From the NCBI RefSeq assembly GCF_003991155.1, contig NZ_CP031293.1: a DNA stretch of 64,000 bases; one strand, written 5' to 3'. Below, one piece after another: positions 10,626-45,616 of the stretch. Each line of letters opens with the position of its first letter. The stretch's first letter is position 1. Position numbers and translations under genes: made by a program. The notes under the pieces were generated by a model. It was not told the origin of the DNA. It worked only from the letters and a program-made list of their open reading frames with translations, and did not search any database. Source of the DNA: Escherichia coli. GTDB taxonomy: Bacteria > Pseudomonadota > Gammaproteobacteria > Enterobacterales > Enterobacteriaceae.

Positions 10626-12051
10626 TAATGCCAGTCAGTTAAGCAACTGACTGGCTCTTTTTCGGGGCTGTGGGGTATTTCCAGGGCCTCTCCTTTACCA
10701 CTCTCGGGAAGGCCCTTTCCCTTCTTGTCGGTAATTTCACAAGTTGTCCCATACTTGCAAGATCGCGCATCAGCTCCGGTATACGTCCCGGTGAAGCGCC
10801 CTGCAATGTCATCAGCATTCTCATCACCATTCCGCATGATTCTGAGAAACTCAGTTGATTCGGCCAGTAACCTTTCAGATGTTCCGCCATTTTAATCATC
10901 TGATATCTCACCAGATTATAAGCCAGTAAGACACCCCACAGCTCTTGCTCCACAAGCTCCGGTTTTTTACTTCTCAGCGTCAGCCTGCTCAGTTGCATCG
11001 TCTGTTTTATCTCCCTGTATCCCAGTTCGATTTCCCAGCGATGACTGTACAGATCCGCCATTTCTCCTCCGGGGAAGCGCATGGCGTCCGTCATCGACGT
11101 CAGCAGATGGCAGACTTTTCCTTTGCGCGTCACGGTCAGCAGGCGGGCTGTCACTTCATTTCCCAGTCCCGGCCACTTTTTTCGTGCCTGCGGGCTGGTT
11201 TTCAGCTTCACCAGATGATCGCCTTTACCCAGTTTTCTGATCTCTTCATATTGCGCTCCCTTTCTGAGAGGTATCATCCAGTGGCGGTGTTCTCCCGCCA
11301 GGCTCCAGGCATTTAACAGTCCCAGTGAGTAATAACCTTTATCCATTAACGTCAGAGTGTTATCGCCGGTTTGTTCTATAAGTTGCTCAGCAAGCTCATT
11401 TTCGCTGTTCTTCATCGTGCCGAAGGCTGCAGCCGTCAGCAGATGGCTGGTCAGTTCCATCTGGCAGACCATTTTGACCTGCGGGTAGAGCGCCGGGTTC
11501 CCGGCATGTGTCTGGCGGGGGAAGGCTGCATCGTTCTCTGGTGTATCCGGTGTGCGCCAGAACACACCATCGATGGCCAGCAAGGTCAGGCCGCACCAGT
11601 GCGGATGCGGCGTGGCGTTATGCCAGAGCTGCGCTGTTTTCGTGAACACGCGGCGGACAGCCTCACTTCCCAGGCGCTGGCGGGCCTGAATAACGGCACT
11701 GGGGGCAACGAAGGGGCGATTGCCCGGCAGCATGATGTCCAGGCGATTCACAATCTGGTGAAGAGGTTCTTTACGCTCAAGCGCCATGCCAACAATACAC
11801 CAGACCATCATTTCGAGGGGAAGACGGCGCTTGCGTAGCGTTACAGTACCTGATTCGGCAAGGCAACGAGAGATGAGTTCGGGGTCGAGGTAATCCCCCA
11901 GAGAAGTCAGTGGGTTACGCAGAGAATCGTAACGGGATACCAGATCAAGAGCCTGTCCAATGTGCATAAAAAAATCCGGAAACAAGTGAGCGTTTCCGGA
12001 TTCTTACACAGCCACTGGATCGGTCAACTGATCCTTAACTGATCGGCATTA
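10626..12051 (-). mobile_element. IS4 insertion sequence, copy 2 (1426 bp), same orientation as copy 1
   Basis: Identical to copy 1 except one nucleotide (copy 1 pos 2412 g vs copy 2 pos 11339 t); own 13-bp target-site duplication. Confidence 0.93.
10639..11967 (-). CDS. insG: IS4 transposase (442 aa)
   Basis: Same protein as copy 1 with Lys at ...TLTLMD[K]GYY... Confidence 0.9.
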
Positions 12052-12122: not shown

Positions 12123-13964
12123 TTAATCGTCCAGGAAGCTACGCAGCACTTCAGAACGGCTCGGGTGACGCAGTTTGCGCAGCGCCTTCGCTTCGATCTG
12201 ACGGATACGTTCGCGGGTAACGTCGAACTGTTTACCCACTTCTTCCAGCGTGTGGTCGGTGTTCATATCGATACCGAAACGCATACGAAGAACTTTTGCT
12301 TCACGCGCGGTCAGGCCAGCCAGCACGTCGTGCGTTGCCGCACGCAGGCTTTCGGTGGTCGCAGAATCCAGCGGCAGCTCGAGGGTGGTATCCTCGATGA
12401 AATCCCCCAGATGCGAATCTTCATCATCACCGATCGGCGTTTCCATGGAGATTGGCTCTTTGGCGATCTTCAGCACTTTGCGGATCTTGTCTTCCGGCAT
12501 CAGCATACGTTCAGCCAGTTCTTCCGGCGTCGGTTCACGGCCCATCTCTTGCAGCATCTGGCGAGAAATACGGTTGAGTTTGTTGATAGTCTCAATCATA
12601 TGCACCGGAATACGGATGGTGCGCGCCTGATCCGCGATAGAACGGGTGATCGCCTGACGGATCCACCAGGTTGCGTAGGTGGAGAACTTGTAACCACGGC
12701 GGTATTCGAATTTATCAACCGCTTTCATCAGGCCGATGTTACCTTCCTGAATCAGGTCAAGGAACTGCAAGCCACGGTTGGTGTATTTCTTGGCGATAGA
12801 AATAACCAGACGTAAGTTCGCTTCAACCATCTCTTTCTTCGCACGGCGGGCTTTCGCTTCACCGATGGACATACGACGGTTGATATCTTTAACCTGCTCG
12901 ATGGTCAGGCCGGTTTCTTCTTCAATCTGCTGCAGTTTCTGCAGGGCGCGATGCACTTCTTCAGAGACATCGTGCAGTTTTTCCGACCACGGCTTGTTCA
13001 TCGCAATTGCCGCGTTGAACCAGGTATCGCTGGTTTCGTTGCCGGTAAACAGGGTAATGAAGTTTTTCTTCGGCATTTTGCACTGCTCAACGCAGAGCTT
13101 CATGATCAGACGTTCTTGCGTACGAACGCGGTCCATCATGACGCGCATGCTGTTGACCAGGTAGTCAAACTGCTTTGGCACCAGGCGGAACTGTTTGAAT
13201 ACTTCAGACAGTTTCAGGATCTCTTCCTGAGCGGCAGCGTGACTGCGACCTTTCGCTTTGATGGTGTCACGCGTTACAACGTACTGAGCGCGCAGTTCCG
13301 CAAATTTTTCGCGAGCCAGTTCCGGGTCGATGCTGTTGTCATCATCGGCGCTGTCGTCATCGCCATCTTCTTCGTCTTCATCTTCGTCATCGTCCAGATC
13401 TTCCTGGGAAAGCTCAGAACCGACGTGAGTGGCGGTAGGTGCCAGATCTTCTTCTGCGTTCGGGTCAACAAAGCCGGTGATCAGATCGGACAGACGCGCT
13501 TCTTCTGCTTCAACACGATCGTACTGTTCCAGCAGATAGGTGATCGCTTCCGGATATTCAGCAACGGAGCATTGAACCTGGTTGATCCCGTCTTCAATAC
13601 GCTTAGCGATGTCAATTTCGCCTTCGCGGGTCAACAGTTCAACGGTGCCCATTTCACGCATGTACATGCGTACCGGGTCAGTCGTGCGCCCGATTTCAGA
13701 TTCCACGCTGGAAAGCACCTGCGCGGCGGCTTCGGCAGCATCTTCGTCCGCGGTGTTTTCAGCCAGCATCAGATCATCGGCATCCGGTGCTTCTTCCATC
13801 ACCTGAATGCCCATGTCGTTGATCATTTGGATGATGTCTTCGATCTGATCTGAATCGACGATATCTTCCGGCAGATGGTCATTGACCTCGGCATAGGTCA
13901 GATAGCCTTGCTCCTTACCACGGGTGACAAGAAGTTTCAGCTGTGACTGCGGGTTTTGCTCCAT
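12123..13964 (-). CDS. rpoD: RNA polymerase sigma-70
   Basis: 613 aa, [36 protein letters not shown]..., acidic region 1.1 and 2.4/4.2 regions. Confidence 0.97.
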
Positions 13965-25947: not shown

Positions 25948-27261
25948 ATGGCTCAGGAAATCGAATTAAAGTTTATTGTTAATCACAGTGCCGTTGAGGC
26001 GTTGCGTGACCATCTCAATACGCTGGGCGGCGAGCACCATGACCCCGTGCAGTTGCTGAATATTTACTACGAAACGCTGGATAACTGGCTGCGTGGGCAC
26101 GACATGGGCTTGCGTATTCGTGGCGAAAACGGTCGCTATGAGATGACCATGAAAGTTGCAGGAAGAGTGACAGGCGGCTTACACCAGCGCCCGGAATATA
26201 ACGTGGCTTTGAGCGAACCGACGCTCGACCTGGCGCAGTTACCGACGGAAGTCTGGCCGAACGGCGAATTGCCTGCCGATCTCGCTTCCCGCGTGCAGCC
26301 GCTGTTTAGCACCGATTTTTATCGCGAAAAGTGGCTGGTAGAGGTTGATGGTAGCCAAATTGAAATCGCCCTCGACCAGGGGGAAGTGAAAGCGGGTGAA
26401 TTTGCTGAACCTATCTGCGAGCTGGAACTGGAACTGCTTAGCGGCGACACGCGCGCGGTGCTGAAACTGGCGAACCAACTGGCGAACCAACTGGTATCGC
26501 AAACCGGATTACGCCAGGGCAGCCTGAGCAAAGCGGCGCGTGGCTATCATCTGGCGCAGGGCAATCCGGCGCGTGAAATCAAACCGACCACCATTTTACA
26601 TGTTGCGGCAAAAGCTGATGTCGAGCAGGGGCTGGAAGCGGCGCTCGAGCTGGCGTTAGCGCAATGGCAGTATCATGAAGAGCTGTGGGTACGCGGCAAC
26701 GATGCGGCGAAAGAGCAGGTGCTGGCAGCCATTGGCCTGGTCCGTCATACGCTGATGCTGTTCGGTGGCATTGTGCCGCGTAAAGCGAGCACTCACTTAC
26801 GTGATTTGCTGACCCAATGCGAAGCGACCATCGCTTCAGCGGTTTCTGCCGTGACGGCGGTCTATTCTACCGAAACGGCAATGGCGAAGCTGGCGTTGAC
26901 CGAATGGCTGGTAAGCAAAGCCTGGCAGCCGTTTTTAGATGCCAAAGCGCAGAGTAAAATGAGCGATTCCTTCAAACGCTTTGCCGATATCCATCTTTCC
27001 CGCCATGCCGCTGAACTGAAAAGCGTTTTCTGCCAGCCGTTGGGCGATCGCTACCGTGACCAGTTGCCACGCCTGACGCGTGATATTGACTCAATCCTGT
27101 TGCTGGCGGGTTACTACGATCCTGTCGTCGCGCAAGCCTGGCTGGAGAACTGGCAGGGGCTGCGTCACGCTATTGCGACCGGACAACGCATTGAAATTGA
27201 ACATTTCCGTAATGAGGCAAACAATCAGGAACCGTTCTGGTTGCACAGCGGAAAACGTTAA
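25948..27261 (+). CDS. ygiF: Inorganic triphosphatase (CYTH-CHAD protein) YgiF; contains an in-frame 12-bp tandem duplication (LANQ-LANQ)
   Basis: 437 aa [24 protein letters not shown]...; tandem ctggcgaaccaa x2 at 26467-26490. Confidence 0.85.
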
Positions 27262-27283: not shown

Positions 27284-30124
27284 ATGAAGCCGCTCTCTTC
27301 ACCGTTACAGCAGTACTGGCAGACCGTTGTTGAGCGGCTGCCAGAGCCTTTAGTCGAGGAATCACTTAGCGCACAGGCGAAGTCAGTACTTACTTTCAGT
27401 GATTTTGTGCAGGACAGCGTGATTGCGCATCCAGAGTGGCTGACGGAACTGGAAAGCCAACCGCCGCAGGCCGACGAATGGCAGCATTACTCTGCATGGT
27501 GGCAGGAGGCGCTCAGTAATGTGAGTGACGAAGCCGGGTTAATGCGCGAGCTGCGGCTATTCCGGCGGCGCATTATGGTGCGCATCGCCTGGGCGCAAAC
27601 GCTGGCATTGGTTACTGAAGAGAGCATTTTGCAGCAGCTCAGCCATCTGGCGGAGACGCTGATTGTTGCGGCGCGTGACTGGCTGTATGACGCCTGCTGC
27701 CGCGAATGGGGAACGCCGTGCAATGCGCAGGGCGAAGCGCAACCGCTGCTGATTTTAGGCATGGGTAAGCTGGGCGGTGGGGAGCTGAATTTCTCCTCAG
27801 ATATCGATCTGATTTTTGCCTGGCCGGAACATGGTTGTACCCAGGGCGGACGCCGGGAACTGGATAACGCGCAGTTTTTTACCCGCATGGGGCAGCGGCT
27901 GATTAAAGTGCTGGATCAACCAACGCAGGATGGCTTCGTCTATCGCGTGGATATGCGACTGCGTCCGTTTGGCGAAAGTGGCCCGCTGGTGCTGAGCTTT
28001 GCGGCACTGGAAGATTATTACCAGGAGCAGGGGCGCGACTGGGAGCGTTACGCGATGGTCAAGGCGCGGATTATGGGCGATAGCGAAGGCGTCTATGCTA
28101 ACGAGTTGCGTGCGATGCTGCGCCCGTTTGTTTTCCGTCGTTACATCGATTTCAGCGTGATTCAGTCGCTGCGCAACATGAAAGGGATGATTGCCCGTGA
28201 AGTGCGTCGGCGCGGTTTGACCGACAACATCAAACTTGGCGCGGGTGGCATTCGTGAAATTGAATTTATCGTCCAGGTATTCCAGCTTATTCGCGGCGGG
28301 CGCGAGCCGTCGCTGCAATCGCGCTCTTTACTGCCAACGCTCAGCGCTATTGCCGAGCTGCATCTGCTTTCTGAAAACGATGCTGAACAATTGCGAGTGG
28401 CGTATCTGTTCCTGCGGCGTCTGGAAAACCTGCTGCAAAGCATTAACGACGAACAAACCCAGACGCTTCCTTCTGATGAGCTTAACCGTGCGCGGCTGGC
28501 GTGGGCGATGGACTTTGCTGACTGGCAGCAACTGACTGGGGCGCTGACCGGACATATGACCAATGTGCGCCGGGTGTTTAATGAATTGATTGGCGACGAC
28601 GAAAGTGAAACTCAGGAAGAGTCGCTGTCGGAACAGTGGCGTGAGCTGTGGCAGGACGCGTTGCAGGAAGATGACACTACACCAGTGCTGGCGCATCTTA
28701 GCGAGGACGATCGCAAACAGGTGCTGACGCTGATTGCCGATTTCCGCAAAGAGCTGGATAAGCGCACCATCGGGCCACGCGGACGTCAGGTGCTCGACCA
28801 TCTGATGCCACATCTGCTAAGAGATGTCTGTACACGTGAAGACGCTGCTGTCACGCTGTCGCGCATTACGGCCTTGCTGGTGGGGATTGTTACCCGCACC
28901 ACCTATTTAGAATTGCTTAGTGAATTTCCTGCGGCGCTTAAGCATTTGATTTCTCTGTGTGCCGCATCGCCGATGATTGCCAGCCAGCTGGCGCGTTATC
29001 CGTTATTGCTGGATGAACTGCTCGATCCAAACACTCTCTACCAGCCGACGGCGACCGATGCTTACCGTGATGAGTTGCGCCAGTATTTGCTGCGCGTGCC
29101 GGAAGATGACGAAGAACAACAGCTTGAGGCGCTGCGTCAGTTCAAACAGGCGCAACTGTTACGCATTGCGGCAGCGGATATCGCCGGTACGCTGCCGGTA
29201 ATGAAAGTGAGCGATCACTTAACCTGGCTGGCGGAAGCCATGATTGACGCCGTTGTTCAGCAGGCGTGGGTTCAAATGGTGGCCCGCTACGGTAAGCCAA
29301 ATCACCTCAACGATCGCGAAGGCCGTGGTTTTGCGGTGGTCGGCTACGGCAAGCTGGGCGGCTGGGAGTTAGGCTACAGTTCCGATCTTGACCTTATCTT
29401 CCTCCATGATTGCCCAATGGATGCGATGACTGACGGCGAGCGGGAAATCGACGGGCGACAGTTTTATCTGCGTCTGGCGCAACGCATTATGCATCTGTTC
29501 AGTACGCGAACCTCTTCCGGCATTTTGTATGAAGTGGATGCTCGACTGCGTCCATCCGGGGCGGCGGGAATGCTGGTGACATCCGCAGAAGCATTTGCTG
29601 ATTATCAGAAAAACGAGGCCTGGACGTGGGAGCATCAGGCGCTGGTGCGTGCGCGTGTAGTGTACGGCGATCCGCAGCTCACCGCGCACTTTGACGCAGT
29701 ACGCCGGGAGATTATGACGCTGCCGCGCGAAGGCAAAACCCTGCAAACGGAAGTGCGGGAAATGCGCGAGAAAATGCGCGCTCATCTCGGCAATAAACAT
29801 CGCGATCGCTTTGATATCAAAGCCGATGAAGGCGGAATTACCGATATCGAATTTATTACCCAATATCTGGTGTTGCGCTACGCTCATGAAAAACCGAAGT
29901 TAACGCGCTGGTCAGACAACGTGCGTATTCTGGAGCTGCTGGCGCAAAACGACATTATGGAAGAGCAGGAAGCGATGGTGCTGACCCGTGCTTACACGAC
30001 GCTGCGCGATGAACTTCATCATCTGGCATTACAGGAATTGCCGGGCCATGTGTCGGAGGATTGCTTCACCGCAGAGCGTGATCTGGTGCGGGCAAGCTGG
30101 CAGAAGTGGCTGGTGGAAGAATGA
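27284..30124 (+). CDS. glnE: Glutamine synthetase adenylyltransferase / adenylyl-removing enzyme
   Basis: 946 aa from [22 protein letters not shown]; ORF track's 27080 start is an upstream over-extension overlapping ygiF. Confidence 0.93.
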
Positions 30125-30171
30125 AGTATGGTATTATCGCGCGCAAATTTTGAATCTCTCAGGAGACAGGA

Positions 30172-31605
30172 ATGAAAGTAACGCTGCCAGAGTTTGAACG
30201 TGCAGGAGTGATGGTGGTTGGTGATGTGATGCTGGATCGTTACTGGTACGGTCCCACCAGCCGTATCTCGCCGGAAGCGCCGGTGCCCGTGGTTAAAGTG
30301 AATACCATCGAAGAACGTCCGGGCGGCGCGGCTAACGTGGCGATGAATATCGCTTCTCTCGGTGCTAATGCACGCCTGGTCGGGTTGACGGGCATTGACG
30401 ATGCGGCGCGCGCGCTGAGTAAATCTCTGGCCGACGTCAACGTCAAATGCGACTTCGTTTCTGTACCGACGCATCCGACCATCACCAAATTACGGGTACT
30501 TTCCCGCAACCAACAGCTGATCCGTCTGGATTTTGAAGAAGGTTTCGAAGGGGTTGATCCGCAGCCGCTGCACGAGCGGATTAATCAGGCGCTGAGTTCG
30601 ATTGGCGCGCTGGTGCTCTCTGACTACGCCAAAGGTGCGCTGGCAAGCGTGCAGCAGATGATCCAACTGGCGCGTAAAGCGGGCGTTCCGGTGCTGATTG
30701 ATCCAAAAGGTACCGATTTTGAGCGCTACCGCGGCGCTACGCTGTTAACGCCGAATCTCTCGGAATTTGAAGCTGTTGTCGGTAAATGTAAGACCGAAGA
30801 AGAGATTGTTGAGCGCGGCATGAAACTGATTGCCGATTACGAACTCTCGGCTCTGTTAGTGACCCGTTCCGAACAGGGTATGTCGCTGCTGCAACCGGGT
30901 AAAGCGCCGCTGCATATGCCAACCCAGGCGCAGGAAGTGTATGACGTTACCGGTGCGGGCGACACGGTGATTGGCGTCCTGGCGGCAACGCTGGCAGCGG
31001 GTAATTCGCTGGAAGAAGCCTGTTTCTTTGCCAATGCGGCGGCTGGTGTGGTGGTCGGCAAACTGGGGACATCCACGGTTTCGCCGATCGAGCTGGAAAA
31101 CGCAGTACGTGGACGTGCAGATACCGGCTTTGGCGTGATGACCGAAGAGGAACTGAAGCTTGCTGTAGCGGCAGCGCGTAAACGCGGTGAAAAAGTGGTG
31201 ATGACCAATGGCGTCTTTGACATCCTGCACGCCGGACACGTCTCTTATCTGGCAAATGCCCGTAAACTGGGTGACCGTTTGATTGTCGCCGTCAACAGCG
31301 ATGCCTCCACCAAACGGCTGAAAGGGGATTCCCGCCCCGTTAACCCGCTCGAACAGCGTATGATTGTGCTGGGCGCACTGGAAGCGGTCGACTGGGTGGT
31401 GTCGTTTGAAGAAGACACGCCGCAGCGCTTGATCGCCGGGATCCTGCCAGACCTGCTGGTGAAAGGCGGCGATTATAAACCAGAAGAGATTGCCGGGAGT
31501 AAAGAAGTCTGGGCCAATGGTGGCGAAGTGCTGGTGCTCAACTTTGAAGACGGTTGCTCGACCACTAACATTATCAAGAAGATCCAACAGGATAAAAAAG
31601 GCTAA
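30172..31605 (+). CDS. hldE: Bifunctional D-beta-D-heptose 7-phosphate kinase / heptose 1-phosphate adenylyltransferase
   Basis: 477 aa [27 protein letters not shown]... Confidence 0.95.
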
Positions 31606-31694
31606 CCGGAAAGCGCTTCACAGTTCTCGCGTTGTGCCGGATAGACCTATTGACGCTGTTGTTTTTTCAACCTAAAGTAAAGGAACAAGGGTAA

Positions 31695-31830
31695 GGGAGG
31701 ATTTCTCCCCCCTCTGATGAGTTGTTAGTAAGTCGGGAAACTTAACAGTAACAACACAACCAGTATGATGACGAACTTCATCATAACCCTTTCCTTCTAT
31801 AAGGCCCCTTCCTCGGGAGGGGCTTTCCCG
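31695..31830 (+). ncRNA. sib: Sib-type antisense RNA (type I antitoxin) overlapping the ibs toxin ORF; ends at hairpin gcccct-tcctcggg-aggggc + ttt
   Basis: Fully antisense to the 19-codon ibs ORF; terminator-like hairpin at 31806-31825; location between hldE and yqiK matches the known sibD/sibE locus; exact ends not determinable by eye. Confidence 0.5.
31725..31784 (-). CDS. ibs: Ibs-family type I toxin, 19-aa hydrophobic peptide MMKFVIILVVLLLLSFPTY
   Basis: Manual translation of minus strand; ATG-ATG start, 19 hydrophobic codons, TAA stop; too short for the ORF track. Confidence 0.75.
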   Translation of the reverse strand: MMKFVIILVVLLLLSFPTY

Positions 31831-32023
31831 TTTCAGCCCCTTGCTGACTCCCCGATTGTTGATGAGCGCCGGACTCCGCGCAACGCTTTCCCAGAGGCAG
31901 TTTTGCCTTCCCCGAGCAGTCACGCAAAACGCTGCAACAGCCTGATCATTTGCACCTTTTTGCGGAACGCAGATATAAAAAATCCCCGGCTTTTTGGGCC
32001 AGGGATTATTCATAGAAGAGGGT

Positions 32024-33685
32024 TTACTCTGTTTTTTCTTCGACGGGAGTTGTTGAGGTTAAGGGGGAAGTCAATGCCGCCAGTGAGCCGCCTGAAACGC
32101 CAATTTCATTGAGCAAGGAGTCAATCAGTGGTGCCTGTGTGCGGTAAGAGAGTGCGGCTGATAATGCTTGTTCCGCCAGGTTTCCGCCCCCCACATTACC
32201 CGTGTTTGCATCCCCCGCAATACCACCACGATTCAGACCATCGACCTGAATAATCTTGATACCGTCAATGGACTTCATTGGTTCCACGGATTTCTCAATT
32301 ACCGCAGGTAGCGCCTGCAACAAGGCCAGTTTGAATTTAAGGCTGGTTTGTTCGTCAGAAAGTACGTTGATAGCATCGTTCAGCGCACGTTGTGCTTCTG
32401 CTTCCGCCAGGCCTTTTTTACGCGTAGCTTCGGCTAACTCAACGATCGCCGCCGCCTGCATCTCTGCGGCTTCTTTTTCTGCTTTCGCCCGCACGGTCAG
32501 TTCAACCGCTTTGGTTTCTGCATCCTGTGCTGCGGCAATCAGCGCCACCTGCTTGGCACGATCGGCTTCTGCGGTCTGGCGAGTGGTTTCAACGTTTTGT
32601 TGGGCGCTTACTGCTTCTGCGAGTGCAAGGTTAGCACGCGCTTCTGCCTGGGACTGTTGTTCCGATTTGGCGGCAATAGCGATCGATTTCGTCTGGTTAG
32701 CGATTTCGGTGACCTGCTGCTGTTCGATTTCTTTAATGCGAACTTCACGTTCAGCTTCAACTTTTCTGGAACGGACGGCCTGTTCGCGGTCGATTTCTGT
32801 TTCCTGAATCTGTCGTTCAGCCAGAATTCGCGTCTGCTCTGCTTCACGACGACGTTCAGCTTCAAAAGCCGCAATTTTCGCATTCTGCTCAGCGGTACGG
32901 GTTTTAACCTGCTGCTCCTGCTCAAGCGTCATAAACGCTTCTTGCTGTTCAATCTCCAGCTTGCGCGAAAGCGCATCACGGTTTTTCTCACGCACCGCAA
33001 CTTCTACATCCTGTTCAACTTCGTTACGTTCGCGACGACGGCGCTCCGTCTCCTGCGTCAGCTTGGTTAAACCTTCGGCGTCAAAGGCGTTGTTAGGATT
33101 GAAATGTTCTTTCGACGTCTGGTTAAAGTTGGTAAGTGAAACGCTTTCCAGTTCCAGGCCGTTTTTTGACAGATCTTCAGCAACGGTATTTTGTACGCCC
33201 TGCACGAAGTTCTCGCGGGTATCCTGTAACTCATGCATGGTCATTTGCGCAGCTGTTGCACGGAGGGCATCGACAAATTTATCTTCAACCAGCATACGTA
33301 AGTCTTCAGGCGACAGGGTGCGTTGCCCCAGCGTCTGGGCGGCGGTGGCAATACCTTCCACTGACGGTTTTACCCGCACAAAGAAAGCGACAACGACATC
33401 GACGCGCATACGATCTTTCGTAATCAGGCTATCAATGGTTGAGCGGCTGACTTCCAGCTTCAGAGTATTCATATTGATGGGGATTATTTCATGAAAGATC
33501 GGCATCACGATTGCGCCACCGCTCATTACCACTTTTTGCCCACCTAAACCAGTACGAACAAAAGCTTGCTCTGCCGAAGCGCGACGATAGAGCCTGGCGA
33601 AAATAATTCCAATAATAAACAGAATGCATACGGCAATAATCGCGGTAAACATCCAGGAGGGCACAGAATTAACAATATCATCCAT
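32024..33685 (-). CDS. yqiK: Flotillin/band-7 (SPFH) family inner-membrane protein with long E/A/Q-rich coiled coil
   Basis: 553 aa; N-terminal TM, SPFH domain, low-complexity charged repeats. Confidence 0.88.
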   Translation of the reverse strand: MDDIVNSVPSWMFTAIIAVCILFIIGIIFARLYRRASAEQAFVRTGLGGQKVVMSGGAIVMPIFHEIIPINMNTLKLEVSRSTIDSLITKDRMRVDVVVAFFVRVKPSVEGIATAAQTLGQRTLSPEDLRMLVEDKFVDALRATAAQMTMHELQDTRENFVQGVQNTVAEDLSKNGLELESVSLTNFNQTSKEHFNPNNAFDAEGLTKLTQETERRRRERNEVEQDVEVAVREKNRDALSRKLEIEQQEAFMTLEQEQQVKTRTAEQNAKIAAFEAERRREAEQTRILAERQIQETEIDREQAVRSRKVEAEREVRIKEIEQQQVTEIANQTKSIAIAAKSEQQSQAEARANLALAEAVSAQQNVETTRQTAEADRAKQVALIAAAQDAETKAVELTVRAKAEKEAAEMQAAAIVELAEATRKKGLAEAEAQRALNDAINVLSDEQTSLKFKLALLQALPAVIEKSVEPMKSIDGIKIIQVDGLNRGGIAGDANTGNVGGGNLAEQALSAALSYRTQAPLIDSLLNEIGVSGGSLAALTSPLTSTTPVEEKTE

Positions 33686-33711
33686 TATTAAATTTCCTTT
33701 TGATTAATAAA

Positions 33712-34341
33712 TTACAATATTTGGGGCCAGGGATTGTTTTCCGCCAAATATCGAGTTGCAGAAAGTCGGCAAATAATTAACACTTTGTCTCCTTTAGTGA
33801 AAATTTTTCCTTCTTCAGGCTCCAGTAGTAAATAATGTATTTGGCCAAATTGATCGGTGAGTTTTCCTTCGCAGGGATTACCTGAAGTGGCTTGATGACC
33901 GGTAATTAACGCCATGCTACCAATATATTCTTCTTCTGTAATAGCTGAACTATGGTCGCGTGGAATCCAGGGCGCAACTATTTTACCGGTATAATGCACC
34001 GCAATAATCGTAAACAGTAAACTGACAGGAACCACGAACAGGTTCGACAGTGGTGATTGCCAGACCATGATGCAGGCATGCTGCAACAGGATGCCAATAA
34101 GACCAAAAAAACCAGCCAGTAAGCAGAGAACGACGAGAGCTGGCAATCTTCCAATATTGAGATAATGAAGTGCCTGGCTAATATGACCTGTGGTTATAGA
34201 ATCATAATGGTCAAGATGTGCATCAAGAGCACCGGAGAGCATGTGACCGCAGATAAGCGCAAAAATTTCTAACAGGCCGATCAACAGTACAAAGGAAATA
34301 GCGAAAAGATAAGGGGTGTTATAGTCGGCGAATAAAATCAT
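33712..34341 (-). CDS. yqiJ: NfeD-like inner-membrane protein partner of YqiK
   Basis: 209 aa polytopic membrane protein with C-terminal OB-like segment; operon with yqiK. Confidence 0.85.
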
Positions 34342-34609
34342 ATATCACTCCAATGTCCATTTAGTGACGCAATATTTACTTTGTAATAGTTTCCTTGCTT
34401 ACATTTATCTGTGTTAATAATAACACAGGTTAGAGAAGTTCTGGAAGAGAAAGTCTTTTAATATGGTTTTTTATTTTTCACTAAAAAGTGTGATCGGGGA
34501 CAATATATTTACGCACGTTATGTTTAAAGGCACTACACTGATTGGGGAATACTGAAATCAGAAAAAGCATATGGCCTTAAAAGGTATGCGATAACCGGAG
34601 GATGTGCTT

Positions 34610-34810
34610 ATGGATCATAGTCTTAATTCTTTAAATAATTTCGATTTCCTGGCGCGTAGTTTTGCCAGAATGCACGCAGAAGGTCGCCCGGTCGATATTC
34701 TGGCCGTTACTGGTAACATGGATGAAGAACATAGAACCTGGTTTTGCGCACGTTATGCCTGGTATTGTCAACAGATGATGCAGGCAAGAGAGCTGGAGTT
34801 AGAGCACTGA
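34610..34810 (+). CDS. glgS: Small surface-composition regulator GlgS (66 aa)
   Basis: [66 protein letters not shown]. Confidence 0.9.
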
Positions 34811-34852: not shown

Positions 34853-35917
34853 CTAGTTATAGGTGATTTTCAGGATTACGTCTTTACTAAACGGTCCCTC
34901 AACAACCGTTTCTGCCGGGTTCGCACTCAGTTCTGCCCTGAATGGTGCGGTGACCGAAGGCGCACTAGACGATGAAAAAGAAGCAAATTGTGAGAAGCGG
35001 TTAAATTCCGTTGCTGTTCCATCGTTATGAAATATCTTCAATAGCAGACCATTACCTATATCCAGATGGCTATAATCACTCAAAATATCCGTAGTGAAAA
35101 AACTCCCTAAAATATTAAACTGCTCAGTACAGGCCGCACCCGGATCTTTGGTCATGACTACGCTAAACGTCTCACTCACGCTGGTATTTTTAATTGTTCG
35201 GGAATTTATTTTACCAAAGTCGACAACGCCATCAGCTGGTTCCAGATCAACATTAACAAAGCAGTCAAGGACATGAATGTTATTTAATCCGCGAATCCTG
35301 AAGGTCAGATTTTTATCTACTTCTATAGCACCTGCTCCGCTCATACCTTTAAATTCAAGTGTTATATATTCGTCAGGTAATACAAGTTTTTTATTTACTT
35401 TATTGGCATTTTTAGCTAGCTTAATATATAGCTGCACTCGTACTGGAAAAGTTACTGATAATTGCGGTTCAGGACCGCCACTACAGACTGCGGGCTTTTT
35501 GTAGCCATTCCCGAAGGTTCCGGCTCCTTTTATATCAATACATACAGGTGCTGCAATAGGTAGTGGAGATGTAGAATCATAATCAACCCCATTATAAGTT
35601 ACACCGAAAGTATAAGAGTTTTGATTATAAAAGTCTTGACCTGATGCTAACAACATCATTATATTTGCCCATGCAGATGGGGATTCTTCTCCTGGAGATG
35701 GGCCTGGTAGTGCATTATTACAGAAAACATTCATAAAATATTCACTGCTTTGCCAGATTTTATCACCTTTTTTACCATCGCTGGGGATAGAGATTCTTGG
35801 TACGTAACCAATGACAACGGTATTTCCACCTTCATGTTCAGCATAGCAGTCCATTGCCCATGCAGGTAATGAACTAAAACCCATAAAAAAAGTAATAACA
35901 ATTAACAAGTAGCGCAT
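34853..35917 (-). CDS. yqiI: Fimbrial adhesin-like protein (chaperone-usher tip subunit)
   Basis: 354 aa with signal peptide; last gene of usher operon; low GC. Confidence 0.8.
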   Translation of the reverse strand: MRYLLIVITFFMGFSSLPAWAMDCYAEHEGGNTVVIGYVPRISIPSDGKKGDKIWQSSEYFMNVFCNNALPGPSPGEESPSAWANIMMLLASGQDFYNQNSYTFGVTYNGVDYDSTSPLPIAAPVCIDIKGAGTFGNGYKKPAVCSGGPEPQLSVTFPVRVQLYIKLAKNANKVNKKLVLPDEYITLEFKGMSGAGAIEVDKNLTFRIRGLNNIHVLDCFVNVDLEPADGVVDFGKINSRTIKNTSVSETFSVVMTKDPGAACTEQFNILGSFFTTDILSDYSHLDIGNGLLLKIFHNDGTATEFNRFSQFASFSSSSAPSVTAPFRAELSANPAETVVEGPFSKDVILKITYN

Positions 35918-35918
35918 A

Positions 35919-36668
35919 TTATTGATCTCGGTTGGCTACAGAAATATTACAAATGTTATTTACTACAGGGCAGTTTATTTCATAAAAACTTAATCCACCA
36001 AAGTCATTGATATAACCCACCTGAAAAGTTGACGGAACATTTTTAAACTGCGTATTTGCATAGCTAAAAGGGGTTACCATTAAGCTTTGCGTTTGTGGTA
36101 ACATCGTTACCCCATTTGTTCCGATATAACCCAGCGTAACGTGATAAGGCATCTTATTGTTAAAGCGGATCGAACCGTCATTTCTACGAATGATTTCAAC
36201 TTTTTCGTAAGTCATTACCCCATCGTCTTCTAATTCAATGGCTTTTGGCCGCCAGAATAGTTTCAATGCGTGCTGCATAGTGACTTGCATCACATTTTTT
36301 TTATCTGTTTTGGGCGGTATTTCTCGCACGTTAAAATAGAAGAGCGTTTCTCTGTCTTTAGGAAGTTGAGCAATTTTTTCCTGAGTTATCATTCTTATTT
36401 GAATTTGCTCACTGGGATTTAAACGCACCATTGGAGGAACAGTGACAATAAAGTCACGCGATTTATTGCCTTTCGTATCTTCTATCCATGTTTGGGCCAG
36501 ATAGGGCAGGTTTTTACTTTGATTAGTAAGTTTTAATGCTTCGCCTTTATCTGACTCATTCATTATGATACGGGTACGATCCGGGATGATGGCACCCCAG
36601 GCAATGCTGCTCATACAGGAGAGTAATACTCCTGCTGCAATGATATTCTTTGTATTTAAGTAGCGCAT
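35919..36668 (-). CDS. yqiH: Periplasmic fimbrial chaperone (PapD-like)
   Basis: About 249 aa, signal peptide, PapD-like fold; ORF track start at 36677. Confidence 0.82.
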   Translation of the reverse strand: MRYLNTKNIIAAGVLLSCMSSIAWGAIIPDRTRIIMNESDKGEALKLTNQSKNLPYLAQTWIEDTKGNKSRDFIVTVPPMVRLNPSEQIQIRMITQEKIAQLPKDRETLFYFNVREIPPKTDKKNVMQVTMQHALKLFWRPKAIELEDDGVMTYEKVEIIRRNDGSIRFNNKMPYHVTLGYIGTNGVTMLPQTQSLMVTPFSYANTQFKNVPSTFQVGYINDFGGLSFYEINCPVVNNICNISVANRDQ

Positions 36669-36683
36669 TAGTTTCATCCTGAA

Positions 36684-39197
36684 TTAATTTTGGCTAATAC
36701 ACGGTAAAATAGCCGTTCCGGTGGTTAAGTTGCTGCTATTGGGTGGTTGAATAAAACAAGATTTGTCACCCCAGCGTAAAGCAAGTTTGTTATCATCCTG
36801 AATGCCGTTGAGGTATACAAAGCCGCCATCAGCAACCAGTCCTAATTCTTTGTGGCTGGTTTCATCTTTTACGCTAATCCCCAGTGGTGGATGACTACCA
36901 TCTGCCAGGCGAATAACCCCTATGATTTGGTAGCCCTTGCGGGTATCAAGTTTGGCGTAGCCAATAGCACCCTCGGTTAAGGTGGTGGTGATAACCGAGT
37001 TTTCGATATCCACATTTTCTGGCAGATTTCGGGTATCAACACTTAATGATGTTGTTATGTAACTGCTGACTGATGGAATAACTCCGATGCCATACCGATT
37101 AGTTACCGCGCGTTTATTGTTCAACGGAATATCTTCAGTGCCGTCTGCGTCGATCATAAAACGCGAGTCAGCACTACCGCTATAGTCGTGGAAAGCGGCA
37201 CCGTGGCGAGTCGCAGTGAATGAACCATTCCAACTGGCATTCAGAGAATAATAACTGTCTCGCTGTGATGTACCGGAGAGGTAGAGTCGACCGTTCTCGG
37301 TATTATGCTGATAACTGGCGCGTAGTGACGCTTTCATATCTTTGAATTCATCATTGTCGCCTGAAGCAGAAACGCTCCAGGAATTATTTCGATCGGAAGA
37401 GTCATACCACGAAGCAGTATGCGAAATCTCATTATCCTGATTTCGTTGCATACCATAGCTCAATGTTCTACTAGTTCCCCAGGGAATCGAAATATTTAGG
37501 TACAGTTGATCCTGGTTGTCTTCTTCCCAGTTTATTCGGCTAAATGTTAGAGAAGTGGAGACGTTTTTTAATGGCCCGATATCAAAATCGCGGCTAAGTG
37601 ATAATGAATAATTCACATTACTGCTGGCGTCCCAGTAAGTATTACGAGCCAAACTTACGTATGTATTTAACCTTAATGATTCAAGATACTGGTTAAACGT
37701 GACAATATAACTCTCTTTTTCATTCTGATAATTCGTGTAATGGTTAGTGTCATTGATATATTCATTCATTGTCACAAAGTTTTTATCAGAGAAACGGTAA
37801 CCAGCGAAAGTGAGCTGGCTACCGGTAGATTCAAAACGTTTTGAATAGTTAGCGCGGTAGCTATAACCCGTTTCTTTATCCTGATTATGCAACTGAGCAT
37901 CAGATCGTGTGACATCAAAAGATAATGAACCTAATGAGTTAAGGTTAAAACCAACGCCGGCAGCCAGAGATTGATAATCACGGTTTGTTAAAACTGAACC
38001 ACCATACAGGGATACATTGTTCAGCCACCCCCATGAGAATTCACCAGTCCAGAAGAAGGGTTGTTGTAAGGAATCACCACCAACGCTGGTCGGTTTACCC
38101 ATAGCAGTGGTGTAGCGAATCTGCCCTTTACGCGTCAGATAAGGAATACTATTAGATGCAACTTGCCATTGCGTAACGCGTCCGTCCTCTTCTTCAACCT
38201 TGACGTCAAGTTGCCCCTGTAATGTATTGAATAAATTGGTAATAGCAAATGGGCCTGGAGGAACATTTTCTTGATAAATAATACGGTTGTTCTGTGAGAC
38301 AGTGACCTTTGCATTCGTTTGTGCGACACCCGTGATTTGCGGTGCGTAACCACGTAGGTCTGGCGGTAACATATTCTCATCGCTTTTCAACGAAATGCCA
38401 GAAAAATGGAAAGAGTCGAAAATAGAGGATTCAGTATCGTATTGACCTATAGTTAGTTTTGCATTCATTGCTGGGATTGGGCGAAACAAATAAATACGCG
38501 GAAAATCCAGGTTGGTCGCCTGGCTTTTGCCATTGTTAAATGACTGATCGTACTGGTAATCAGTACGCAGGCGCCAGGCCCCAAGATTAACCCCAGCCTG
38601 CCCATAGGAACTTATATTTTGCGAATTATCGCCCTGATGTGGTGCATAATGAGAGGCATATAAATTGTAGTCAAGAAATGCCCCAGCAATACCATGATTC
38701 CAAAGTTCAGGAGGCGTCCAGTTTGCATCTTTGTATTTTAACCATGCCTGAGGTGCAGATATGGATAATTGCATTTTCCCTTTATCGAGATAAGTTGTAA
38801 TTTGTTTTTCTTTTTCGATAGGGTAACAACCATCGATCAGGTTTTGCTGAGTTTTTTCAATAAATTCATCAGTAAATCCTAATAATGTTAATTGCTCTGG
38901 TGTCACGCAAACTGCAGTTTGGTTATCAATTAATACCCATTGGAGGTCAAGGTGGATTGGCGTCCTCTTATTATTAATCAGAGTGCTTAGTGAATATTTG
39001 CCGACGGGTAATTGGCCATCAGTTTCAAATTGGGAAAGGTTAACGTTTTCACGATCTTCGGCTTCGATTAAATCTTTGTTGAATTCAACGGCATAAGCTG
39101 ACGCACAACCAATGATGATAACGGATAATGAACAATAAATATTTTTAATCAATTCGCTTATTGTGGTTAATTTTAATTTTTTATACATCTGATCCAC
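36684..39197 (-). CDS. yqiG: Outer-membrane fimbrial usher, intact reading frame
   Basis: 837-aa uninterrupted ORF with usher-type beta-barrel sequence; exact start uncertain. Confidence 0.85.
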   Translation of the reverse strand: MDQMYKKLKLTTISELIKNIYCSLSVIIIGCASAYAVEFNKDLIEAEDRENVNLSQFETDGQLPVGKYSLSTLINNKRTPIHLDLQWVLIDNQTAVCVTPEQLTLLGFTDEFIEKTQQNLIDGCYPIEKEKQITTYLDKGKMQLSISAPQAWLKYKDANWTPPELWNHGIAGAFLDYNLYASHYAPHQGDNSQNISSYGQAGVNLGAWRLRTDYQYDQSFNNGKSQATNLDFPRIYLFRPIPAMNAKLTIGQYDTESSIFDSFHFSGISLKSDENMLPPDLRGYAPQITGVAQTNAKVTVSQNNRIIYQENVPPGPFAITNLFNTLQGQLDVKVEEEDGRVTQWQVASNSIPYLTRKGQIRYTTAMGKPTSVGGDSLQQPFFWTGEFSWGWLNNVSLYGGSVLTNRDYQSLAAGVGFNLNSLGSLSFDVTRSDAQLHNQDKETGYSYRANYSKRFESTGSQLTFAGYRFSDKNFVTMNEYINDTNHYTNYQNEKESYIVTFNQYLESLRLNTYVSLARNTYWDASSNVNYSLSLSRDFDIGPLKNVSTSLTFSRINWEEDNQDQLYLNISIPWGTSRTLSYGMQRNQDNEISHTASWYDSSDRNNSWSVSASGDNDEFKDMKASLRASYQHNTENGRLYLSGTSQRDSYYSLNASWNGSFTATRHGAAFHDYSGSADSRFMIDADGTEDIPLNNKRAVTNRYGIGVIPSVSSYITTSLSVDTRNLPENVDIENSVITTTLTEGAIGYAKLDTRKGYQIIGVIRLADGSHPPLGISVKDETSHKELGLVADGGFVYLNGIQDDNKLALRWGDKSCFIQPPNSSNLTTGTAILPCISQN

Positions 39198-39247
39198 TTA
39201 TCATTAATCCGTTAATGATGTGGCCGGGCGAACCCGGCCAAATGCGA

Positions 39248-39799
39248 TTACTCGTAAGCAATCTTGTAGTCAGCCTGAGCGTAAACGTTGCCCGGGGTGG
39301 CATCTTTGCTTGGGGATTCCATACGAGCTTTGAAATTCAGTTCCTGATAGCTGTTGGTATTGTTGAACGTAATTACTACCGGAGTACCTAAAGTTACTTC
39401 GCCGCTCTGGCTGTCCAGAATACGTACGCCAACGCCAGTGGCGCCGCCGATTTCAGTTTCTTTGGTATTTTTCAGAAGATCAGACTGACCCGTCATGGTA
39501 TTTGCTGTAGTGAAAGTAACCTTCGCTTTTGAATAAGTAGTTCCACCCTGACTCAGCATGCAGTCCTGCAGGTGAATAGTGAAAGGTTCAGCCAAAGATT
39601 TCTGATCGCTTTTCAGTACGGTATCTGCTACTTCACCCAGATTTACAGTTAAATCTTCGTCACCTGGTTTAATAGAACATGGAGCAGAGATAACTTCACC
39701 TTTAAATTTAACAATACCGTGACCTTCATCAGCAAACACGTTATTGGAAAGAATCATTGCTACGCCAGCAACAAGAAGTGACTTTTTAAAAGCGGACAT
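39248..39799 (-). CDS. ygiL: Fimbrial major subunit-like protein
   Basis: 183 aa, signal peptide, fimbrial subunit C-terminal beta-strand. Confidence 0.82.
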   Translation of the reverse strand: MSAFKKSLLVAGVAMILSNNVFADEGHGIVKFKGEVISAPCSIKPGDEDLTVNLGEVADTVLKSDQKSLAEPFTIHLQDCMLSQGGTTYSKAKVTFTTANTMTGQSDLLKNTKETEIGGATGVGVRILDSQSGEVTLGTPVVITFNNTNSYQELNFKARMESPSKDATPGNVYAQADYKIAYE

Positions 39800-40082: not shown

Positions 40083-40373
40083 TTACAGCGTTGGGGGGAG
40101 AGTCTCTGGATCTGGCTGCTTTTTGATCTCAGTACTGCGATTTTCCAGTTCGCTGATTCTTTGTTCAAGCAGCGCCAGTTTTTCACGAGTCCGTAACAGG
40201 ACTTGCGTTTGGACGTCGAACTCTTCACGGCTTACAAGGTCGAGGCGCGTCAGCTGCGCTTGTAGGGTTTGGCGGATTTTTTTCTCCACATCTTCCCCGA
40301 ACTCCCTGATTCCTTTAGGCATTGATTCGTGAACCTGGCGAGCGATTTGCTCAATTTTTTTCGGGTCAATCAT
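40083..40373 (-). CDS. ubiK: Ubiquinone biosynthesis accessory factor UbiK (BMFP family coiled-coil protein)
   Basis: 96 aa from [21 protein letters not shown]...; ORF track start 40433 is an upstream extension. Confidence 0.85.
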
Positions 40374-40494
40374 TGTAGTTTCCCTGTACTGATAGGTGTT
40401 GAGTGCCATTGTAGTGCGATAAGGGTAAGTCATAAACCAGAATTATGTGAAGCTATGCGTTGCTGCCGCTAATCATTAGCGTTATAGTGAATCC

Positions 40495-40700
40495 GCTTAT
40501 TCTCAGGGCGGGGCGAAATTCCCCACCGGCGGTAAATCAACTCAGTTGAAAGCCCGCGAGCGCTTTGGGTGCGAACTCAAAGGACAGCAGATCCGGTGTA
40601 ATTCCGGGGCCGACGGTTAGAGTCCGGATGGGAGAGAGTAACGATTCTGTCGGGCATGGACCCGCTCACGTTATTTTGGCTATATGCCGCCACTCCTAAG
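40495..40700 (+). promoter_or_regulatory. FMN riboswitch (RFN element) in ribB leader
   Basis: Conserved RFN core ...agggcggggcgaaattccccaccggcggtaaatcaactcagttgaaagcccgcgagcgctttgggtgcgaactcaaaggacagcagatccggtgtaattccggggccgacggttagagtccggatgggagagagtaacg... upstream of ribB. Confidence 0.85.
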
Positions 40701-40746
40701 ACTGCCCTGATTCTGGTAACCATAATTTTAGTGAGGTTTTTTTACC

Positions 40747-41400
40747 ATGAATCAGACGCTACTTTCCTCTTTTGGTACGCCTTTCGAACGTGTTGAAAAT
40801 GCACTGGCTGCGCTGCGTGAAGGACGCGGTGTAATGGTGCTTGATGATGAAGACCGTGAAAACGAAGGTGATATGATCTTCCCGGCAGAAACCATGACTG
40901 TTGAGCAGATGGCGCTGACCATTCGCCACGGTAGCGGTATTGTTTGCCTGTGCATTACTGAAGATCGCCGTAAACAACTCGATCTGCCAATGATGGTAGA
41001 AAATAACACCAGCGCCTATGGCACCGGTTTTACCGTGACCATTGAAGCAGCTGAAGGTGTGACTACCGGTGTTTCTGCCGCTGACCGTATTACGACCGTT
41101 CGCGCAGCGATTGCCGATGGCGCAAAACCGTCAGATCTGAATCGTCCTGGCCACGTTTTCCCACTTCGCGCTCAGGCAGGTGGTGTACTGACGCGTGGCG
41201 GTCATACTGAAGCAACTATTGATCTGATGACGCTGGCAGGCTTTAAACCGGCTGGTGTACTGTGTGAGCTGACTAATGACGATGGCACGATGGCGCGTGC
41301 ACCAGAGTGTATTGAGTTTGCCAATAAACACAATATGGCGCTCGTGACTATTGAAGACCTGGTGGCATACCGTCAGGCACATGAGCGTAAAGCCAGCTGA
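40747..41400 (+). CDS. ribB: 3,4-dihydroxy-2-butanone 4-phosphate synthase
   Basis: 217 aa [42 protein letters not shown]... Confidence 0.95.
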
Positions 41401-41430
41401 AAACCGCTGCTTAATTTACTGCCTTAATCA

Positions 41431-41462
41431 AGAAACCGAAGTTGTAGCAGGCTTCGGTTTTT
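41431..41462 (+). terminator. Rho-independent terminator of ribB
   Basis: gaaaccgaag-ttgtagcagg-cttcggttt followed by ttatttttc. Confidence 0.75.
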
Positions 41463-41661
41463 ATTTTTCCCTGCTATGCAAGATGTTAATTCCGCTTCTC
41501 TTTCTATGAGAAAATTTCATTAATATCAGGCATTCTTTTTCATTATGATCAAAATCATATAATTGTTCCGTTATTATGCGACCATATGAATATATCCGAA
41601 AAAGGATATGTGAAATTTATACGCTAAATGTTTAGTATTGTTAAATATTAAGGGTAAAAGG

Positions 41662-41832
41662 ATGTTTATCGCCTGGTACTGGATTGTATTGATTGCTCTG
41701 GTTGTGGTGGGTTATTTCCTGCATTTGAAACGTTATTGTCGGGCGTTTCGCCAGGACAGAGACGCACTGCTTGAAGCGCGGAACAAATACTTAAACAGTA
41801 CGAGAGAAGAGACAGCCGAAAAGGTAGAATAA
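41662..41832 (+). CDS. Small single-pass membrane protein (56 aa from ATG; track version starts at upstream TTG 41638); identity not confidently recalled
   Basis: MFIAWYWIVLIALVVVGYFLHLKRYCRAFRQDRDALLEARNKYLNSTREETAEKVE: one hydrophobic helix plus charged tail; weak SD; lies in ribB-zupT spacer. Confidence 0.45.
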   Translation: MFIAWYWIVLIALVVVGYFLHLKRYCRAFRQDRDALLEARNKYLNSTREETAEKVE

Positions 41833-41889
41833 GGCTTTCGTGAAGCTGGCAGAAGTTGTCCATGCGCTGGACAACTTCTGATGTTGTTT

Positions 41890-42663
41890 TTAACCAATTC
41901 CCGCCGTTTGTAGCAGCACTAAACTGAATCCCATCACTGACATTCCACATAGTACGCCATAGCTGGGGTTATTATTAGGGTCAATCTCTTTGGCGAGCGG
42001 CATTAATTCATCAACCGAGAGCGCCACCATAATTCCTGCAACCGCCGCCATGATTGCCGCCATGACCACCGGGGAAATCATGCTACCGAGGATTAACCAC
42101 GCCAGCACACCACCAAGAATTTCTGCTAGTCCAGAAATTCCCGCCCACAGAATCGCGGTGCGTTTAGACCCCGTTGCCGCATAAACCGGGCCTGCCACTG
42201 CCAGACCTTCAGGGATATTGTGCAACGCGACGGCCAGTGCGATGCCAAATCCCAGCTCCAGGTTGCTGCTCGCCGTGACAAAGGTGGCAATCCCTTCCGG
42301 GAAGTTATGCAGACTGATGCCGAGAGTGAGCAGAATGGCTGTGCGCTTGATCGATTTTGGCAACGGCTGCACCGATTTTTGCATTAAATCCTGCGGATGA
42401 GCATGTGGCAACATGCGGTCCAGGCCAAAATAGCCAAGCAGACCGAAGATAAACATTCCATAACCCAACACAGGCGACATTCCTTCAGCTGCTAGTGCGG
42501 CAGGAAGCATTTCCATTAATGAGATGAGCAACATGATCCCCGCCGCAAAACCTAGCGAAAACGCCAGTAAGCGGTTCGAGGGTTTTTGCCCGAGAACGCC
42601 GAGAAACGCGCCAATAAACGTGGCTGCCCCCGCCAGTATGGTCAGAATGAGAGGTACTGACAT
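41890..42663 (-). CDS. zupT: ZIP-family zinc transporter
   Basis: 257 aa from [20 protein letters not shown]... Confidence 0.9.
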
Positions 42664-42778
42664 CGACAACTCCTTATAAATCTTCACCTTCAGGCAGATC
42701 GTCAAAATAACTGATGATCATCATCATTGTTATCCGGGTTCTTACTCCGCCGAACAAGCGTATTGTGAGGATATCAAA

Positions 42779-43594
42779 ATGACACCTTTAGTTAAGGATA
42801 TCATCATGTCTTCAACACGTATGCCAGCATTGTTTTTAGGTCACGGTAGTCCGATGAACGTGCTGGAAGATAATTTGTATACCCGCAGCTGGCAGAAGTT
42901 GGGGATGACATTGCCACGCCCGCAAGCGATTGTGGTGGTTTCGGCTCACTGGTTTACCCGTGGAACAGGAGTGACCGCGATGGAGACGCCGCCCACGATT
43001 CATGACTTTGGTGGCTTCCCGCAGGCGCTGTACGATACGCATTATCCTGCTCCGGGTTCGCCTGCGCTGGCACAGCGTCTGGTTGAGCTGTTAGCGCCGA
43101 TCCCGGTGACGCTGGATAAAGAAGCCTGGGGCTTTGACCACGGCTCGTGGGGCGTGCTGATTAAGATGTATCCTGACGCTGATATCCCGATGGTGCAGTT
43201 GAGTATCGACAGTAGCAAACCTGCCGCCTGGCATTTCGAAATGGGGCGCAAACTGGCAGCGCTGCGAGATGAAGGAATAATGTTGGTCGCCAGCGGTAAC
43301 GTGGTGCATAACCTGCGCACAGTGAAGTGGCACGGTGATAGTTCACCGTATCCGTGGGCGACGTCGTTTAATGAGTATGTGAAAGCGAATCTGACGTGGC
43401 AAGGGCCAGTGGAACAACATCCTCTGGTGAATTACCTCGACCATGAAGGTGGCACGTTATCGAACCCAACGCCAGAGCATTATTTGCCGTTGTTGTATGT
43501 GTTAGGTGCGTGGGATGGGCAGGAGCCAATTACCATTCCGGTTGAGGGTATAGAAATGGGCAGCCTGAGTATGCTGTCGGTGCAGATAGGCTAA
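42779..43594 (+). CDS. ygiD: Extradiol ring-cleavage dioxygenase class III (DOPA-dioxygenase-like) YgiD; true start may be the internal Met at 42806
   Basis: ...MPALFLGHGSPMNVLEDN...SAHW...HN motifs of LigB-type dioxygenase. Confidence 0.85.
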   Translation: MTPLVKDIIMSSTRMPALFLGHGSPMNVLEDNLYTRSWQKLGMTLPRPQAIVVVSAHWFTRGTGVTAMETPPTIHDFGGFPQALYDTHYPAPGSPALAQRLVELLAPIPVTLDKEAWGFDHGSWGVLIKMYPDADIPMVQLSIDSSKPAAWHFEMGRKLAALRDEGIMLVASGNVVHNLRTVKWHGDSSPYPWATSFNEYVKANLTWQGPVEQHPLVNYLDHEGGTLSNPTPEHYLPLLYVLGAWDGQEPITIPVEGIEMGSLSMLSVQIG

Positions 43595-43631
43595 CAATTA
43601 CCGGATGGCGAGTGCCATCCGGTATCGTGGC

Positions 43632-44792: not shown

Positions 44793-44797
44793 CGGTA

Positions 44798-45469: not shown

Positions 45470-45616
45470 TTTTGTCTTCCGGGACCAGTGGTAAATACCC
45501 ATCAGAATAGAGGATGGCTGGTCGAAATTGAAGCGAGAAGGGGGAAGAATGCGGCAGATAACCCGTATCTTTACGTTGCCTTACGTTCAGACGGGGCCGA
45601 AGCCCCGTCGTCGTCA

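Follow-up and report, generated by a model that had tools for sequence, protein, structure and literature searches.

A four-residue in-frame duplication in the YgiF tunnel domain, a probable near-neutral lineage marker of Escherichia coli ST457 and close relatives

How does the inorganic triphosphatase gene ygiF come to encode four residues more in one stretch of Escherichia coli DNA than in K-12, and what does the difference mean for the enzyme and for the lineages that carry it? The window, that is, the whole 64-kb stretch of DNA analysed here, contains a ygiF gene for a 437-aa protein, against 1,302 bp and 433 aa in K-12. An earlier note on this DNA had attributed the extra residues to a perfect tandem duplication of slipped-strand type in the CHAD-domain part of the protein and had proposed it as a strain marker. 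The features concerned are the following.

25948-27261, plus strand: ygiF open reading frame, 437 aa plus stop, inorganic triphosphatase (open reading frame listing, Pfam, match to PDB 5a60 and annotation of carrier genomes).
26465-26494, plus strand: complete array, AACTGGCGAACC x 2.5, period 12, perfect (Tandem Repeats Finder score 60; alignment with non-carrier alleles).
26467-26490, plus strand: in-frame register as reported, ctggcgaaccaa x 2, encoding L174-A-N-Q177 and L178-A-N-Q181 (sequence and translation numbering).
26477-26482, plus strand: middle copy of the AACTGG microhomology, with outer copies at 26465-26470 and 26489-26494 (allele alignment).

Direct reading of the DNA confirms ctggcgaaccaa twice in perfect tandem at 26467-26490. 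For the array 26465-26494, Tandem Repeats Finder gives a period of 12, 2.5 copies, 100% matches and 0% indels, and the copies lie head to tail, perfect and with zero bases between them. The duplication preserves the reading frame, and codon counting from the start ATG (25948) puts LANQLANQ at residues 174-181; at the protein level the change is from LANQ to LANQLANQ, within what reads K-L-A-N-Q-L-V-S-Q in the unduplicated form. This array is the sole perfect tandem duplication with a period of 9-30 in the 64-kb window. Random sequence of that length should contain about 0.004 perfect 12-bp duplications, and about 1e-6 with the 18 matched positions seen here. Another potential slippage substrate, a perfect 6-bp repeat (CTGGAA x 2.5), is present 30 bp upstream at 26422-26436. 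It encodes an E-L-E-L-E-L strand bearing the metal ligands Glu-160 and Glu-162, and the residues that it specifies, E158-L163, are invariant across the orthologue alignment.

The architecture of the protein is that of K-12 YgiF, with which it is collinear over its full length. Pfam recognises an N-terminal tunnel domain (PF01928, CYTH) at residues 3-200 (E=3.1e-37, 128.6 bits, cutoff 23.2) and a C-terminal CHAD domain (PF05235) at residues 231-415 (E=1.9e-22, 80.8 bits, cutoff 25.6). The genomic context is also alike, the gene order ygiM-ygiF-glnE-hldE being the same as in annotated genomes. What distinguishes the window allele from the K-12 protein is the presence of four extra residues, a second LANQ, following residue 177. 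Alignment with PDB entries 5A60/5A61 runs end to end (E=1.8e-285) with one 4-residue gap, at the duplication site, in agreement with the length difference of 437 versus 433 aa given in the earlier note. The window protein also differs from the PDB YgiF by eight substitutions (query positions 44, 131, 134, 136, 233, 268, 336-338 and 370), and the gene differs from K-12 ygiF at 41 nucleotides.

The crystal structure places the TTM domain at residues 1-200, a linker at 201-220 and the CHAD domain, with its four-helix bundles, at 221-433 (Martinez et al. 2015, PMC4641920). By both the Pfam and the published boundaries, residues 174-181 therefore lie in the TTM/CYTH domain and outside CHAD, which begins at residue 231 (Pfam) or 221 (PMC4641920). 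The CHAD location given in the earlier note is thus ruled out. The duplication begins 12 residues past Glu-162. Metal binding in YgiF involves Glu-4, Glu-6, Glu-160 and Glu-162, and Arg-56 is catalytically important (PMC4641920). These five residues are invariant in the orthologue alignment and all are kept in the 437-aa translation; their K-12 numbering is unchanged because the insertion is downstream of the whole E4-E162 stretch.

Alleles without the duplication provide a view of the site before the event. In E7-1N7, MS 21-1, UPEC 536 and K-12 it reads AACTGGCGAACCAACTGG, i.e. AACTGG-CGAACC-AACTGG, and the carriers differ from these four aligned non-carriers at the site by only one additional AACTGGCGAACC unit. 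The array at 26465-26494 corresponds to this ancestral 18 bp plus one additional 12-bp unit. In an alignment of the window and three carriers with the four non-carriers the gap is a clean 12 bp, and at least 15 bp on each side of the array are free of any other change. The ancestral 6-bp direct repeat has, in all four non-carriers, a spacing of exactly 12 bp, which is the length of the duplicated unit. Slipped-strand mispairing between short direct repeats is a classic route to small in-frame indels, as at the lacI hot spots. The ygiF duplication resembles classic cases in its perfect head-to-tail copy and in the equality between unit length and the spacing of the earlier 6-bp direct repeat. 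It differs from hot spots of the lacI type in being a fixed one-off, recurrence not having been seen among 5,425 genomes. We infer slippage from this repeat anatomy; the assignment in the earlier note to a slipped-strand type of indel is consistent with the 6-bp direct repeat, 12 bp apart, in all alleles that lack the duplication.

The distribution of the duplication was surveyed with a 123-bp query centred on the repeat, searched against 5,425 complete E. coli genomes. Carriers, matching at 100% over 123 bp, number 47 (0.9%). The 95-99% identity band of this search was empty, the remaining genomes matching at 95% or less owing to the 12-bp gap; there is therefore no other haplotype with an independent duplication among the 5,425 genomes. 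With the whole gene as query, 46 of the 47 carriers are identical across 1,314 bp and one (21AR0303) has 1 SNP. The matches at 99% or more over the gene are the 47 carriers alone, with neither revertants nor three-copy alleles of the carrier haplotype in this collection. All 47 have exactly two full copies, so that copy number does not vary among these close relatives. The closest allele without the duplication is 98.2% identical, which corresponds to 12 SNPs and the gap. The exact 437-aa protein occurs on at least 1,000 contigs in a public protein collection, and among the sources of the carriers are humans, animals (cattle, poultry, pigs, sheep, dogs, cats, mink and wild birds) and water (rivers and wastewater). 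As side observations from the same collection, one ygiF match is on a plasmid record and not on a chromosome, and a ygiF match is absent altogether from one of 5,426 genomes.

A 12-kb flank query returned the 47 carriers as its 47 best matches, and these fall into three flank groups.

Group a, 36 genomes: identity to the window about 100% across 12 kb, no difference; ST457 (MRY15-117, MRY15-131).
Group b, 8 genomes: 99.3% identical, upstream block differing from ttdR to cca; ST1722 (TCM3e1) and ST12280 (CE-O153H30).
Group c, 3 genomes: 98.9% identical, with an extra segment of ~375 bp, differing from the 3' part of glnE onward; ST457 (CREC-544).

Published sequence types cover five of the 47 carriers. 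MRY15-117 and MRY15-131 were typed as ST457 (PMC5430464), as was CREC-544 (PMC5884925), which serves as the ST457 reference in another study (PMC9860340). TCM3e1 was typed as ST1722, O11:H25 (PMC8801394), and CE-O153H30 belongs to phylogroup F and ST12280 (PMC11963381). The window itself most likely comes from the ST457 lineage, since it is 100% identical over 12 kb to MRY15-117 and MRY15-131, which are among 33 exact matches. A core of about 4 kb with zero SNPs (approximately 25-29 kb of the window), comprising ygiM, ygiF and the 5' part of glnE, is common to the three groups, and the annotated ygiF product is WP_000046247.1 in all of them. SNP mapping indicates that they are separated by recombination-sized blocks on either side of ygiF. 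Such a pattern is the signature of a mutation that happened once, on a single haplotype whose flanks recombined afterwards. The allele may have reached the ST1722/ST12280 group either by descent or by recombination. The earlier proposal of a strain marker holds in the sense of a usable lineage marker (47 of 5,425 genomes, one haplotype); the duplication marks a clade that spans several sequence types and not a single strain.

The surroundings of ygiF form a recombination mosaic, in which group b departs from the window between about 16 and 25 kb and group c from about 29 kb onward (interval ~29000-34800). Farther along, between 40 and 52 kb (40143-51705), the window shows a divergence of about 2% from each of the three comparison genomes, the ST457 genome CREC-544 among them. 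In the three group-c carriers, the ~375-bp segment, located in the ibsE-yqiK interval, contains an extra copy of an Ibs-family type I toxin (11602-11661 of the CREC-544 locus). K-12 also has an extra Ibs copy there (11670-11729 of its locus), whereas only one ibsE is present in the window and in groups a and b.

Several other features of the window were recorded. Two near-identical insertion elements of ~1,426 bp, at 1698-~3124 and 10625-~12051, encode an IS4-family transposase (open reading frame 1712-3058, minus strand; NCBIfam NF033592, E=7e-90). Over their first 714 bp the two copies agree completely; beyond that point at least one base differs. One copy interrupts ebgA and the other lies between mug and rpoD, an interval occupied elsewhere by a NADAR-family gene or by nothing; both are absent from CE-O153H30, CREC-544 and MS 21-1. 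In a four-gene chaperone-usher fimbrial operon (34853-39799, minus strand), genes for chaperone, usher and fimbrial-like subunit (PRK09733) accompany a 354-aa open reading frame without an NCBIfam match. The operon is carried in a ~5.3-kb glgS-ubiK segment that is missing from three 50-kb comparison loci, including that of the ST457 genome CREC-544, and its position is one that we take to be that of ygiL-yqiGHI in K-12. Finally, an imperfect hexamer repeat (TCGTCA x 6.8, 77% matches) at 13354-13394 lies inside rpoD on the minus strand, as located by alignment to one of the three comparison loci (L008), and presumably encodes an acidic stretch.

The likely effect of the duplication on the protein can be considered from conservation and from structure prediction. 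After the last beta-strand of the tunnel domain comes a short helix, and the four residues are located where this helix ends on its C-terminal side. Positions L172, L174, A175 and L178 do not vary among the aligned orthologues, K173 and V179 hardly do so, and the L172/L174/A175/L178 stripe is the buried face of this helix. The helix at the point of insertion is thus not unconstrained. Its Leu-Ala-polar-polar pattern is repeated by the inserted LANQ, which, with ~1.1 turns for four residues, would roughly preserve the hydrophobic stripe.

Modelled with AF2, a 433-aa allele from E. coli (mean pLDDT 90.7) shows a strand at 152-165, a helix at 169-178, a loop at 179-183, a strand at 184-186 and a helix at 191-199. 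The model of the 437-aa allele (mean pLDDT 84.8, pTM 0.84) shows a continuous helix at 168-186, a strand at 188-190 and a helix at 195-202, a comparison which is suggestive only, AF2 being no validated predictor of indel effects. Superposed on 5A60, the 437-aa model gives TM scores of 0.93/0.95 and an rmsd of 2.2 A, and other TTM structures match as well. According to these models the insertion would be absorbed by lengthening of the helix into the former loop, with downstream elements remaining in register and the fold and catalytic residues kept. In 10-residue blocks over 171-200, pLDDT is 82/71/75 for the 437-aa allele and 92/81/91 for the 433-aa control. This local drop may reflect real strain, or just the gaps in every other row of the alignment.

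The Mg2+/Mn2+-dependent hydrolysis of tripolyphosphate is documented for the 433-aa K-12 protein only (PMC3440374, PMC4641920). The share of YgiF in the total PPPase activity of E. coli extracts is only marginal in vitro (PMC3440374), which suggests a weak constraint on the protein. As far as the models indicate, the 437-aa allele is most likely functional and near-neutral.

Alternative explanations concern the reality of the duplication, its polarity, its frequency and its function. Since some technologies miscall short tandem repeats, the duplication could in principle have been produced by sequencing or assembly of the window; against this, the identical sequence recurs in 47 complete genomes, which were produced in different laboratories and countries and on different platforms, including PacBio for MRY15-117 and MRY15-131 (PMC5430464) and nanopore R10.4.1 for CE-O153H30 (PMC11963381), and the exact protein is found on at least 1,000 contigs. 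With 47 independent complete genomes in agreement, an artefact is almost certainly not involved and was rejected. The reverse polarity, with the double motif ancestral and the 433-aa form a deletion product, has in its favour that slippage deletes as readily as it duplicates and that the two states are one unit apart. A set of 130 YgiF orthologue and allele sequences was retrieved, from Citrobacter, Salmonella, Enterobacter, Kosakonia, Leclercia, Silvania, Intestinirhabdus and others. Among these, 118 are 433 aa long, LANQLANQ is present in the query alone, and the extractable orthologue regions have a single L-A-x-x followed by L-V/L-x-x. A reference YgiF with a double LANQ, which would have spoken against the earlier note, was sought in K-12, PDB, the orthologues of other genera and the remaining 5,378 E. 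coli genomes, all of which have the single motif. The two-copy state is best read as derived, because the orthologues of other genera, at least five of them, are 433 aa long with a single motif. The double motif is, moreover, found on a single tight haplotype only, which 0.9% of the E. coli genomes carry, and an ancestral double motif would demand the identical deletion in virtually all other lineages and genera. The outgroups rule out such a history for practical purposes. Scarcely more credible is the proposal that slippage recurs here as at a hot spot, or that the repeat is phase-variable (a contingency locus) with frequent changes in copy number. Two perfect 12-bp copies and a half copy do form a better slippage substrate than the ancestral sequence, and essentially all E. 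coli have the ancestral microhomology; but every carrier has one ygiF haplotype, and no independent gains, revertants or three-copy alleles occur among the 5,425 genomes. Furthermore, the 12-bp unit is a multiple of 3 within a coding region, so that a change in copy number cannot switch the frame and the reading frame stays open. Recurrence and contingency were rejected on the basis of the single haplotype and the lack of copy-number variation.

The last alternative is a functional role. The longer helix might alter opening and closing of the tunnel, substrate preference or TTM-CHAD coupling, and might have been selected in the ST457-related clade. The allele has remained intact, without frameshifts or reversion, through at least three sequence types and many hosts; the insertion is 12 residues beyond the metal ligands E160/E162, in a helix with invariant hydrophobic positions, and AF2 confidence is lower locally at the insertion. 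In addition, TTM tunnels must open for substrate binding, and CHAD enhances YgiF activity (PMC4641920; bioRxiv 10.1101/567040). However, there is no sign of selection: the event is a single one, the 5,378 other genomes being devoid of parallel duplications, and a neutral marker would be equally expected to persist in a clonal lineage. All catalytic residues and the predicted fold are kept, YgiF is marginal to cellular PPPase activity (PMC3440374), and a connection between ygiF and ST457 is absent from the literature searched. We therefore consider a functionally meaningful duplication very unlikely. A little more doubtful still is the particular form in which extension of the helix (168-186) changes tunnel opening or the communication of TTM with the polyphosphate-binding CHAD domain, so that short-chain polyphosphatase activity is altered and the allele retained by selection in the ST457-related clade, a multi-host lineage that is spreading globally.

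The account that we prefer, and hold to be very probable as a whole, is that of one slippage event on a phylogroup F haplotype, later spread and a near-neutral lineage marker. In an ancestor belonging to E. coli phylogroup F, a single slippage event during replication, between two AACTGG hexamers 12 bp apart, would have duplicated AACTGGCGAACC in ygiF, one time and on one haplotype of the gene. By descent, and possibly by local homologous recombination too, this allele would then have been passed to ST457 and to related sequence types such as ST1722 and ST12280. The four residues would lengthen the helix by about one turn, leaving a functional enzyme and an allele that is neutral or nearly so.

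At the sequence level the 437-aa protein is not new. RefSeq WP_000046247.1 ("MULTISPECIES: inorganic triphosphatase [Escherichia]") is the product in carrier genomes whose ygiF is identical to that of the window (0 SNPs), UniProt A0A1M0CWA3_ECOLX is an exact-sequence match, and the window protein shows no difference from either. The allele is thus already catalogued, and nothing about the gene, its enzyme family or the mechanism of mutation is unfamiliar. No paper on a YgiF length variant, or on ygiF together with ST457, was found in the literature searched. The marker has apparently not been pointed out before, which makes this a matter of curation and not of discovery.

The duplication is a real, ordinary lineage marker and probably a near-neutral one. 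Its biological weight is small, as befits a single in-frame indel, probably near-neutral, in a non-essential enzyme. Its practical use is as a presence/absence marker for ST457 and its close phylogroup F relatives (ST1722, ST12280), the 12-bp size difference being scorable by PCR or by k-mer search with the 30-mer AACTGGCGAACCAACTGGCGAACCAACTGG. ST457 is a multidrug-resistant lineage found in humans, livestock, pets, wildlife and wastewater. The locus also provides a clean textbook case of microhomology-mediated duplication, in which the ancestral substrate is still visible in every other genome, and a natural four-residue helix-extension variant of use for the study of TTM tunnel dynamics.
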